From assembly GCA_963764725.1 (NCBI GenBank), contig CAVXTM010000001.1:32001-96000 (forward strand): DNA of 64,000 nt. Reading direction: 5' to 3'. The number at the start of each line of letters is the position of its first letter. The first letter of the stretch is position 1. Source of the stretch: an uncultured Gammaproteobacteria bacterium. Lineage in GTDB: Bacteria; Pseudomonadota; Gammaproteobacteria; JACCXJ01. Below, piece by piece: positions 60,415 through 63,851 of this stretch. The notes below the pieces were generated by a model that saw nothing but the letters and a program-made list of their open reading frames with translations, ran no database searches and was not told where the DNA came from. The translations under genes were made by a program, and so were the position numbers.

Positions 60415-61290
60415 GTGAGAAGTGACTCCATATTGAGGATTACCACGAAGCTCCGCCGCTGGGTTATGGTGCTACTCGTGACAGCGATCACAGCAGTGGA
60501 AATAGGCGCTATGGACTCCATCGAGAAGAATGAATCTGATGTGGAAAGGAGTATCTGTGGTTTCCTACGCGAGCCCTTCGCCTTCTGGTCGTTTCAGCTG
60601 ACGGCTGGCGCGCCCGATGCGAAACGCACGCGCGCAATACCCGGGATCGAGCGCTTGTCTTTCACAACCCGCGATGGCCGAAGCTTAGGCGGTTACAAGC
60701 TGCGCGCGGTGGCGCCTTGGGGCTACCTCTTGGTCGCCCAGGGGAATGCCATGCTGGCGGACCAAATCATCGGTGAGTTGCAATTCTTCCGGGATTTTGG
60801 CCTGGACGTTTACATTTATGACTACCGTGGCTATGGACTATCGGGGGGCAAAAGTCGACTCAAAGCGCTTATTTCTGACTACCAAGAGATCATTCGGGCG
60901 TTGAACGCCCAGGATTACCGCCGTCGTTTTTTGTATGGCATTTCGATGGGCGGCATAATCCTCTTGGATGCAGTCGGAATCACCGATGAGTATGACGCCG
61001 CCGTCATCGATTCTTCCCCAAGCCGGATCTCCCCTTTAGGGTGCCCGGAGGAATACGATCCGATCAACCACTTACCCATCGATGCCTCAGGGATAAAGAT
61101 CGTGATCGGGCTGAGCGATCGAGTGGTCCCCGCCGCAGAGATAGAAGAGATGGCGAAGGAGGCACAAAGCCGTGGGGCGGCGGTGTCGAAACATCCGGAG
61201 TTTGCCCATCCGTTCCAAGATTTCAGCTTGGAGACGCATCTCCGCCGGTTTCAGGAGGTGGCGGATTTTTTCACACGATGGCGGCCCTGA
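60415..61290 (+). CDS. Alpha/beta hydrolase
   Basis: YDYRGYGLSGG, GISMGG nucleophile elbow, DRVV and HPF; start uncertain. Confidence 0.85.
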   Translation: MRSDSILRITTKLRRWVMVLLVTAITAVEIGAMDSIEKNESDVERSICGFLREPFAFWSFQLTAGAPDAKRTRAIPGIERLSFTTRDGRSLGGYKLRAVAPWGYLLVAQGNAMLADQIIGELQFFRDFGLDVYIYDYRGYGLSGGKSRLKALISDYQEIIRALNAQDYRRRFLYGISMGGIILLDAVGITDEYDAAVIDSSPSRISPLGCPEEYDPINHLPIDASGIKIVIGLSDRVVPAAEIEEMAKEAQSRGAAVSKHPEFAHPFQDFSLETHLRRFQEVADFFTRWRP

Positions 61291-62152: not shown

Positions 62153-62314
62153 ATTCCTTCCCTCCTACCGAGGCTACGATACGATATTAAACCGCCGCAC
62201 GTTGCCATGGAACGCAATTCTTATGGGCATCATATTAATTGTATGCCGAGAATCATCATTATCAAGCCATCGTTAGCACAAATTTAGCTGCTACCCCAAG
62301 CAAACTGATTTTTC

Positions 62315-63820
62315 GGTGTTGTTTCAGTTTGAATTTCGGCTTACGACCCCTTGCAGACGCTCACTGGAGATGGAAGCTGACATTCATGTGGACCTCGTGA
62401 CGACATGGACCTTCTTCTGTTGAAGGCCCAAAAGCTCGGATCAGTCCGATTTCCTCACTGGTCCAGCCTTATCGGTACACTCCAGCCAACACGTCAGGGG
62501 TATGCGGCCGCGACGCCCGCCTTGTGCTCCTCGCGCATCCCAGCCTCAAGGCTGTCGAGCCAGTCCAACAACGCATCCCAACTGCGCAGGCTGAATGCCT
62601 CCACACCATAGCGTTTCTGGAGATTTACCGTCGGCATACAGACAAGGCCGGCCATGAAAATGTCGATCACGATGGCGTCGCAATACGGCGCATACAGCGA
62701 GATGTGCTTGATGTCCTCAAACACGCCCTTCAAGCGCTGGCGCGCTTCTTTTCGGTTCGAGAACGTACCACGCTTTACCATTTCCCGCATCGTCGCGAAC
62801 ATGTGCGACGAGAGCCACATGTACGGCACCTCAGCAAAGTGCGGTGATTGGAAGAAATCTATACAGCGCCGGACGCGTTCCGGGAGCGGTTGATCCTTCG
62901 GCAGGCAATACATCATGTGCTCCATCACCTTTGCGACCATGGGCGAATTGATGGCGGCGTTGAAGTCACCCTCAGCGTAGCGCTTGATCATCGTGAGATA
63001 CGTGTGCACGTACTGGCGGCCTGCATCATGAATTTCCAAGGCCACGGCTTCGTTAAAAGTCTGAGTTGAGACCTGCCACTGGTCGAGCACCTTGACCAGT
63101 TCGTCCACCGCCTCTTCCTTCAACCGACGCTTCAACTCAATATCGCACATGTAACCGCCAACATCGATGCGGAAGTAGCCGTCCCATTTGTCCAGGGCAC
63201 CCTGGATGGCATCCCGGTCTTCAACGATGTACTCCGGCGGCTGGTCCTTCAAGAATGCCTCCCAGGCTTTCAGCACCTGCTTGCGTTCTACGTTGTAGTG
63301 CTTCTCGAACTTTACGCCGCGCGACGTGGCTTTGATGAATTCCATTAGCTGATCCTCGTGGCCCCGCCACTGGTGCGTTTCGTCTTCGTGAACCGAAGAA
63401 TATGGAGCGACGAGCAGCTGCAGGCGGCACATTCGCTTGACGCGCTCAGTGGCTACTTTGAAGCGCGGGTCTTTTCTGCGCAACGCACCGGAGAAAAAGA
63501 ACTGGTCGAGGTAAATAACCTTCTTGCGGATCTCTGGCAGCCACACAACGCGCTGGTATTGGCAGTACTTACAGCCTCGGAGGACATATTCGCGCACTGA
63601 GACATTGCCGAAGCTGTCCTTCGCCCCGCACCCAGGGCAATCGCCAAGCACTCTAGTCACCAGCATCGCTTCCGGTTTCCGTCGGTTCTGTCGTCAAGAT
63701 CCCCCGGGTCCAACCATCCAACATAGTTTAGCGGGAGATCGTCGCTGACCGTCAGCTATCGGGCAAGACTCTCAAGGTCCGGTCATGGCCGATAGCCGAA
63801 ATTCAAACTGAGACACTACC
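62315..63820. mobile_element. Non-autonomous transposable cassette (1506 bp) with one passenger gene
   Basis: 27-bp inverted repeats at 62315-62341 and 63794-63820 (24/27 identical), flanked by the direct repeat GATTTTTC (62307-62314, 63821-63828); no transposase inside. Confidence 0.88.
62494..63666 (-). CDS. Hypothetical protein, N-terminal Zn ribbon plus PIN-like domain
   Basis: CPGC...CKYC; VIYLDQ, SSVHEDE, EDIKH and YCDAIVID acidic pattern. Confidence 0.7.
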   Translation of the reverse strand: MLVTRVLGDCPGCGAKDSFGNVSVREYVLRGCKYCQYQRVVWLPEIRKKVIYLDQFFFSGALRRKDPRFKVATERVKRMCRLQLLVAPYSSVHEDETHQWRGHEDQLMEFIKATSRGVKFEKHYNVERKQVLKAWEAFLKDQPPEYIVEDRDAIQGALDKWDGYFRIDVGGYMCDIELKRRLKEEAVDELVKVLDQWQVSTQTFNEAVALEIHDAGRQYVHTYLTMIKRYAEGDFNAAINSPMVAKVMEHMMYCLPKDQPLPERVRRCIDFFQSPHFAEVPYMWLSSHMFATMREMVKRGTFSNRKEARQRLKGVFEDIKHISLYAPYCDAIVIDIFMAGLVCMPTVNLQKRYGVEAFSLRSWDALLDWLDSLEAGMREEHKAGVAAAYP

Positions 63821-63851
63821 GATTTTTCTAACCACACGTCAGTAGGCGCAG

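Follow-up and report, generated by a model that had tools for sequence, protein, structure and literature searches.

Mobile insertion cassettes (MICs) are defined (PMC3913671) as units bracketed by two inverted repeats that have no transposase gene nearby and usually a duplication of the target; the same paper describes MIC231 of B. cereus as mobilised in trans by the transposase of IS231A. The present work deals with an element of this kind in a 64,000-nt stretch of DNA from an uncultured Gammaproteobacteria bacterium of the JACCXJ01 lineage (GenBank assembly GCA_963764725.1, contig CAVXTM010000001.1, positions 32,001 to 96,000), hereafter the window. Occupying window positions 62315-63820 (1506 bp including its repeats), the element resembles MIC231 and the qnrD and qnrS2 'mic' elements in that two inverted repeats bracket a passenger gene, no transposase gene lies inside and the target is duplicated. 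It differs from MIC231 in having ends of the IS1 type and not of the IS231 type (IS4 family) and a duplication of 8 bp, and its mobilisation in trans is proposed here from sequence comparison. Insertion sequences (ISs) of the IS1 family have ends of the form GGnnnTG and generate duplications of 8-9 bp; IS1 itself is a ~0.8-kb element encoding a transposase with an N-terminal zinc finger by means of an InsA/InsB frameshift. With a probability of about 0.85, we interpret the window element as a non-autonomous MIC derived from an IS1-type transposon.

An earlier note, made from the letters of the window, had proposed 27-bp terminal inverted repeats, an exact 8-bp target duplication, an imperfect symmetry continuing further inwards and a single gene of non-transposase nature, and each of these proposals withstood closer inspection. 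The left arm (GGTGTTGTTTCAGTTTGAATTTCGGCT) and the right arm, read as reverse complement (GGTAGTGTCTCAGTTTGAATTTCGGCT), are identical at 24 of the 27 positions, the mismatches falling at positions 4, 5 and 9, and they start with GGTGTTG and GGTAGTG, respectively, both of the GGnnnTG form. The octamer GATTTTTC abuts both element ends without a single difference. When a degenerate 27-mer was run with up to two mismatches, the two arms were its sole matches within the 64-kb window, and no match was obtained in 100 dinucleotide-preserving shuffles of it. The weaker inner symmetry is genuine as well, being explained by two conserved subterminal end types, A (...CGGCTTnCGACCC...) and B (...CGGCTATCGGCC...), one at each side of the element. 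Its sole long open reading frame (ORF) encodes 390 aa, all other ORFs of at least 50 aa overlapping it, and a promoter and terminator scan of the element stayed at or below chance level. The coordinates of these features are listed in Table 1.

Strong support for the insertion of the unit as a whole, also anticipated in the earlier note together with a clean single octamer in relatives lacking it, comes from the empty site. We searched the element with 1.3 kb of sequence at each side against eight other genomes of the genus (G, C, L and X numbers below denote genomes, contigs, loci and metagenome runs). The site is uninterrupted in G006 (C95) and G008 (C10), which read ...caagcaaactGATTTTTCtaaccac... 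with one copy of GATTTTTC; G008 is unpublished, the published support for the empty site being that of G006. In G003 and G001 (the latter unpublished) the sequence differs at the insertion spot and the element is present in neither. Contigs from four public metagenome runs, aligned to the window region, bridge the empty site too. One from run X6 passes directly from 62313 to 63839 at a depth of 174 versus 8 for the element interior, and contigs from X1 and X2 bridge similarly; overall, contig depths reach hundreds to thousands in the flanks and 5-30 in the element interior, values that are sums over organisms and serve as a rough guide. The cassette itself is covered from repeat to repeat, at 92-93% identity, by a 1516-bp contig (X3) and a 1500-bp contig (X6). 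Furthermore, many unrelated metagenome contigs part from the window sequence at two places, towards the interior at 63786-63789 and towards the flank immediately beyond 63820. These breakpoints define where the element ends outwards and put the inner edge of the shared end at ~32-35 nt. The insertion would date to the lineage of this genome, after its split from the sequenced congeners. The end sequence is also of use for dating gene gain between close species.

The same signature is repeated at other places. Among 34 pairs of ends (33 non-redundant), the flanking octamers are identical at 8/8 positions in 14 and at 7/8 in 11, compared with 1 and 20, respectively, among 1943 mismatched control pairs. 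The consensus of the end, built on 92 distinct metagenome ends and 11 from the genome, starts with GGTAGTG. Besides this common tip, each element shows a regular difference between its two ends, A-type ends carrying ...CGACCC... and B-type ends ...GGGTGG... or ...ATCGGCC...; the typing of 30 pairs gave 22 A+B combinations, a single B+B and no A+A, with 7 unclear to the pattern. The B motif is approximately the complement of the A motif, so that C(G/C)ACCC, flanked by GCTTT...AAAGC, stands on the same strand at both ends and the element therefore has a polarity. Tallying how the cargo is oriented with respect to the A and B ends gave an unconvincing 12 versus 6.

The expectation that the ends recur with other cargo was borne out within this genome, across the genus and in metagenomes. 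An 18-mer of the end, with up to two mismatches, occurs 11 times in the genome (0 for the reversed control), and a profile search recovered 15 ends. Three pairs (Table 1) enclose cargos that are mutually dissimilar and contain no homolog of the 390-aa protein; solo ends are common. The end 18-mer was found in all eight congeners, in none of six genomes from other genera of the family and in 1 of 400 other genomes of the phylum that were sampled, with 2 mismatches in that single match. At least 126 metagenome stretches contain the end. The cargo was read in 78 metagenome loci (~110 ends), in which the pairs bracket single or few unrelated genes, for instance a radical SAM enzyme with a GntR regulator, a cupin, an epimerase, methyltransferases, an alpha/beta hydrolase, AlaE, DUF4440 or a rifampin ADP-ribosyltransferase. 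Within the genus the cargo is mostly of the defence or toxin type (AbiV, NACHT-N domain, DruA-like, reverse transcriptase, RelA/SpoT, Schlafen-like, Vsr with Dcm, TacA/GNAT, PrlF/YhaV and PIN proteins), many of these loci coming from the unpublished genomes G001, G002, G005, G007 and G008. When 165 inward ORFs were compared all-against-all by BLAST, no protein recurred, and Pfam placed the cargos in unrelated families. In this genome, the first 4 kb inwards from each end are free of transposase genes.

Several further observations concern these ends. The 16.3-kb unit on C10 holds an extra internal end at 61226. On C2 a 30.6-kb stretch (129907-160510) is bounded by ends without a matching duplication and carries genes for Fic, a RecD-like helicase, AAA ATPases, a ResIII helicase and a reverse transcriptase, together with an IS bearing a DDE_Tnp_1_4 transposase and fragments of succinate dehydrogenase genes. 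In the metagenome locus L172 (1392-1959) a 568-bp cassette with the exact duplication CGCGGTCG has as its sole cargo an Arr-type rifampin ADP-ribosyltransferase (Pfam Arr-ms, E 5e-48), so that resistance genes are among the cargos. L172 belongs, with L117, L140 and L173, to the small relatives with the same ends (236-603 bp). These short forms, the non-autonomous nature of the family and ends shared with a complete element recall miniature inverted-repeat transposable elements (MITEs), from which the window copy departs because MITEs are non-coding and of a few hundred bp, whereas it measures 1506 bp and encodes a full protein. A Neorhizobium plasmid matched at a single solo end only, and three end matches in viral contigs were uninformative.

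It could be argued that the ends are recombination sites, or stretches of portable homology, between which cargo is swapped in an integron- or dif-like manner without any transposition of the whole unit. The frequency of solo ends fits this idea, as does the fact that the same junctions, putA|GTPase and mscL|Mo-oxidoreductase, bear the same ends with different cargo across species. The former site is occupied in this way in G006 (L069), G003 (L073) and G001 (L083, unpublished), and the latter in G006 (L067) and G008 (L075, unpublished); the cargos at these hot spots comprise TacA/GNAT, an unknown 606-aa protein with PrlF/YhaV, and ankyrin proteins with DUF7380/DUF4209. At the mscL site the duplication is conserved across species, and the two sites suggest a turnover of cargo inside resident ends. 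A search of this genome gave no high-identity orthologs of the genes at these hot spots (putA, GTPase, mscL). However, exact 8-bp duplications of unrelated sequence at many sites, along with the clean empty site for the window copy, are the signature of transposition, and no recombinase was found to recur beside the ends. An exchange of cargo may well occur in parallel, which leaves the insertion in the window unexplained; as a substitute for transposition we regard it as very unlikely.

The gene carried by the window element deserves separate consideration, since the element is laid out like an ordinary IS: it measures 1.5 kb, is bounded by inverted repeats and is filled by one ORF, whose product starts with a zinc ribbon like that of several transposases. 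If it were an IS, the 390-aa protein would be a new type of transposase. Many of its homologs lie on ~1.4-1.6-kb contigs, as would be expected from this idea; contigs of this length are better accounted for by assemblies that break in the repeated ends. Homologs of the protein number at least 623, every one of them called hypothetical, and come from Beta- and Gammaproteobacteria as well as other groups; no family for it was found in Pfam, NCBIfam or PADLOC. The gene is single-copy in the genome. None of 18 homolog loci that were fetched has the element ends (one partial nhmmer hit, E 0.29), and the longest inverted repeat flanking the gene in 16 checked loci is 12 nt, compared with 18 exact nucleotides in the window. 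Homology between the element and the 18 loci, as detected by blastn, is limited to element positions 186-1403, i.e. the ORF and 43 bp upstream, that to L023 reaching position 1403. Other elements with the same ends lack a homolog of the protein. The neighbours of 12 homologs vary, including housekeeping genes as well as ParE, AbiEi/AbiEii, PD-(D/E)XK and SIR2-like genes, and no conserved partner gene was found beside these 12 loci.

A confident AlphaFold2 model based on an alignment with 26 homologs (predicted local distance difference test score 85.5; predicted template modelling score 0.84) is mostly helical, with a PIN-like domain interrupted by a large helical insertion and residues 1-42 matching zinc ribbons. 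In a VIA wide search, chains of the PIN or VapC type (VapC toxins, FitB, protein-only RNase P) made up 19 of the 20 top rows, with Z-scores of 5.0-7.4, below the safe level of the tool, over 118-155 aligned residues (root-mean-square deviation 3.0-4.2) of model residues 46-378, and Foldseek returned no match in the PDB at E <=0.001. Neither a transposase nor an integrase was among the best structural matches. D54, D95, E96, D318 and D335 are invariant in the 26 homologs. The modelled structure thus makes a PIN fold probable, and the protein probably acts as a toxin- or defence-type nuclease. The ORF is cargo and not a transposase gene, and its reading as a transposase is close to refuted.

A candidate for the missing transposase was recognised through a weak PF03400 match on G003 contig C198, which corresponds to an ORF of 279 aa with the motifs QCDEIW, TTDGHKPY and YVERQNLTMRMGMRRFTRLTNGFSK; the first 19 nt of the cassette end lie ~0.5 kb downstream of it. 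This ORF belongs to a complete element delimited by inverted copies of GGTAGTGTCTCAGTTTGAA, and a second complete element is present in the sister genus genome G010 (Table 1), a further copy in G013 being cut by the contig end with one tip in view. A tblastn search against plasmids retrieved four more copies, all on alphaproteobacterial plasmids. Their tips conform in 4/4 copies to GGTAGTG(T/G)(C/G)TCAGTTTGAAATTT, one tip of the Hoeflea copy following the cassette form through nt 22. The complete elements span 2.6-4.2 kb and show exact 8-bp duplications in five of the six copies with both ends in view. Cassettes and complete elements share the terminal 19-23 nt, GGTAGTGTCTCAGTTTGAA(T), which substantiates the further prediction that the ends recur around a transposase.

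The best NCBIfam model for this transposase is that of IS1 (NF033558, E 1.2e-12), followed by IS1595 (4e-4) and IS6 (1e-3), in agreement with the IS1-family guess of the earlier note. NCBI and JGI apply the name 'IS1 family transposase' to many of its at least 8000 homologs, those at 70-82% identity included, and many have a precomputed PF03400 hit; the plasmid annotation reads likewise in three of the four copies, the protein of Methylocapsa being annotated as a helix-turn-helix domain-containing protein. The complete elements share with the IS1 family, of which ISAba3 is a member (PMC9330008), the GGnnnTG ends, the 8-bp duplications and a transposase best matched by the IS1 model. Unlike IS1, they encode the transposase in a single ORF with an N-terminal helix-turn-helix; no CxxC pair was seen by eye in its first 60 residues, nor a frameshift. 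An enzyme of one ORF without a zinc finger would presumably fit the single-ORF subgroup of IS1. The complete elements are also longer than IS1 and hold extra genes: just inside the left tip lies a gene for a 79-aa Lys- and Ala-rich basic protein (125-364 in L290, and in the equivalent place in L291, L292, L308, L310 and L311). It is kept in five of the six other copies, whereas the large middle gene varies; one plasmid annotation names it 'histone H1', and it may assist transposition as an accessory DNA-binding factor. Neither the 79-aa protein nor the middle gene had a match in the genome of the window. Made up of a transposase, the 79-aa protein and variable genes, the complete elements correspond to the transporter ISs (tISs), defined as IS derivatives with passenger genes (PMC9330008); lacking a transposase, the window element is a MIC rather than a tIS.

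Because the terminal 19-23 nt and the 8-bp duplication are common to both, an enzyme of the IS1 type is the likely mover of the cassettes. Their mobilisation by some other transposase, be it IS1182/IS5-like, IS91-like or of an unsampled family, appears unlikely. It would accommodate the fact that the IS1-type elements match the cassettes over 19-23 nt only, as well as the IS1182-like transposase situated directly inside ends in G003 (C101), G007 (C43) and contig C5 of this genome, and the IS91-type genes that start 134-385 bp inside ends in L171 and L175. Nevertheless, the IS1182-like element has inverted repeats of its own and a fixed point of interruption, beyond which the end continues, and it therefore represents an insertion into the end; the rolling-circle enzymes of the IS91 type are not known to make inverted repeats or 8-bp duplications. 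The same terminus at both sides together with 8-bp duplications is found in the IS1-type elements only.

Several transposases were considered as partner and discarded. The IS1182/IS5-like one was a candidate before it was recognised as an insertion. It is a 480-aa protein with DDE_Tnp_1, DUF772 and DDE_Tnp_1_6 domains, encoded by an element with CCGAGGCTGTGTGAAAAC as repeats that occurs at 2903-4575 of L235/L247 (G003:C101), in L251 (G007, unpublished) and in this genome at C5:109300-110996, C16:73558 and C10:61177, where a 32-nt palindrome of its repeats is the sole remnant. It always lies after nt 32 of the end, the junctions being ...TTTCGA|IS|CCCAAAC... or ...TATCGG|IS|CCAG..., with the end sequence resuming on the far side. 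It looks as if this element targets the cassette ends, as IS4321 and IS5075 reportedly do with the repeats of Tn21. The IS91-type genes (L171 40-1744, L175 942-2348) are on short, unrelated metagenome contigs, and in L171 a tyrosine recombinase gene precedes that of the IS91 type. An IS256-family transposase near an end on C15 (L018 7200-8453) has different repeats of its own and interrupts the cargo; the locus (L018 5926-9086, C15:229926-233086) consists of a solo B-type end followed by a KAP-family P-loop NTPase gene split by this IS (Transposase_mut, E 1e-62). Finally, the IS66 family (PF03050) has no match in this genome, is present in five of nine genomes of the genus and shows no linkage to the ends, the sole nhmmer hit in the six loci retrieved being partial and non-significant (11 nt, E 0.85, L282).

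Some observations weigh against the derivation of the cassettes from an IS1-type transposon, or against parts of our reading. The cassettes are alike over 27-50 nt, and the complete elements match them over the first 19-23 nt only; the inner likeness may stem either from the common descent of the cassettes or from an unsampled source subfamily, and the true source of the cassettes may accordingly lie in a subfamily yet to be seen. The transposase falls short of the curated cut-offs, with 48 versus 100 bits for NF033558 and 20.5 versus 24.1 for PF03400 (G003 copy). The assembly of this genome, 96.9% complete, contains no copy of it, and no complete element was seen among the ~110 metagenome ends. 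The Methylocapsa copy and the C18 pair lack a matching duplication. The assignment of the cargo to the PIN proteins stands on Z-scores under the safe level, with the Foldseek search negative.

In the mechanism that we favour, a DDE transposase supplied in trans would have bound the ends and inserted the whole 1506-bp unit into the intergenic target GATTTTTC, which would have been duplicated upon insertion; the passenger would consist of one gene accompanied by 43 bp of its native upstream sequence. Since the genome has no copy of the transposase, the cassette would now be stranded unless a complete element arrives.

Table 1. Features of the window element, other pairs of ends in the same genome and complete elements encoding the 279-aa transposase.
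Feature	Location	Strand	Size	Flanking duplication	Basis or content
Left target-site duplication copy	window 62307..62314	.		GATTTTTC	sequence; single copy at the empty site of G006 and G008
Left terminal inverted repeat, A-type	window 62315..62341	+	27 nt		A-type end runs on to ~62364 (TTACGACCCCTTGCAGAC)
Left subterminal non-coding module	window 62342..62493	.			cassette-specific; not in cargo-gene homolog loci elsewhere
Cargo gene: N-terminal CxxC...CxxC zinc ribbon and predicted PIN-like nuclease domain	window 62494..63666	-	390 aa		AlphaFold2 model and VIA
Upstream segment carried along with the cargo ORF	window 63667..63709	-	~43 bp		homologous to upstream of closest relatives
Right subterminal non-coding module	window 63710..63793	.			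B-type inner part ~63760-63793; end comparison and blastn
Right terminal inverted repeat, B-type	window 63794..63820	-	27 nt		metagenome contigs diverge just outside 63820
Right target-site duplication copy	window 63821..63828	.		GATTTTTC	sequence; single copy at the empty site
End pair, same genome	C7:67624-72986		5.4 kb	GAGACATC, exact	PPIase, DUF3604, 393-aa unknown
End pair, same genome	C10:58785-75095		16.3 kb	TGTGATGA, exact	NERD/SEC-C, TIR-like, MFS, sulfatase, others
End pair, same genome	C18:333958-339495		5.5 kb	flanks 6/8 identical	three unknowns, one P-loop protein
Complete element, G003:C198	L290 60-2869		2810 bp	CCGGCCCG, exact	GGTAGTGTCTCAGTTTGAA at both tips, inverted
Complete element, G010:C426 (sister genus, unpublished)	L291 50-2665			GACGGCTT	transposase 82% protein identity
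Complete element, Mesorhizobium loti	CP050295.1		3370 bp	CGCTGGTG	
Complete element, Acidiphilium multivorum	NZ_CP041717.1		2634 bp	AAGCCGAG	
Complete element, Hoeflea	NZ_CP011481.1		4224 bp	GATGATTG	
Complete element, Methylocapsa	NZ_CP136863.1 (L310)			no matching duplication	both tips present

A 15-nt stretch of the end (CAGTTTGAATTTCGG) retrieved no report on this sequence from open-access full text, the match listed being an unrelated C. elegans paper, and among open-access papers, judged by title and abstract, we found none on IS1-derived cassettes. The MIC concept is already known; what is notable here is the scale, the diversity of cargo, the load of defence-type genes and the polar ends. 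In contrast to the described MICs, the family is very large and diverse, spanning the metagenome stretches counted above, dozens of unrelated cargos and A/B polarity. Its likeness to the gene cassettes of integrons is a functional one, both being pools of mostly single-gene, varied units at recurring chromosomal places; the elements described here have neither attC nor integrase, and their inverted-repeat ends with 8-bp duplications at many sites point to transposition. It is tempting to speculate, in a tentative manner and with more doubt than confidence, that they could constitute the transposon-borne counterpart of the integron cassette pool: a large, mostly unannotated family of single-gene units, many with defence or toxin genes, spread among Proteobacteria of soil, sediment and caves by a rare IS1-type transposon acting in trans, whose polar 32-50-nt ends would allow cargo swaps at hot spots by recombination between ends and would be parasitised by the IS1182-like element at 32|33.

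Annotation pipelines seek transposases, and such cassettes pass as ordinary chromosomal genes. A single end sequence flags dozens of unrelated genes as recently mobile, these including toxin-antitoxin pairs, AbiV, NERD/SEC-C and TIR proteins, reverse transcriptases, the rifampin ADP-ribosyltransferase and metabolic enzymes. The search for ends is hence a cheap route to accessory and candidate defence genes, among them the zinc-ribbon/PIN-like family to which the cargo of the window element belongs. With one small transposase, 20-nt termini and 8-bp duplications, the system also offers a simple test bed for trans-mobilisation, and it could throw light on the way in which non-autonomous elements become more numerous than their source.

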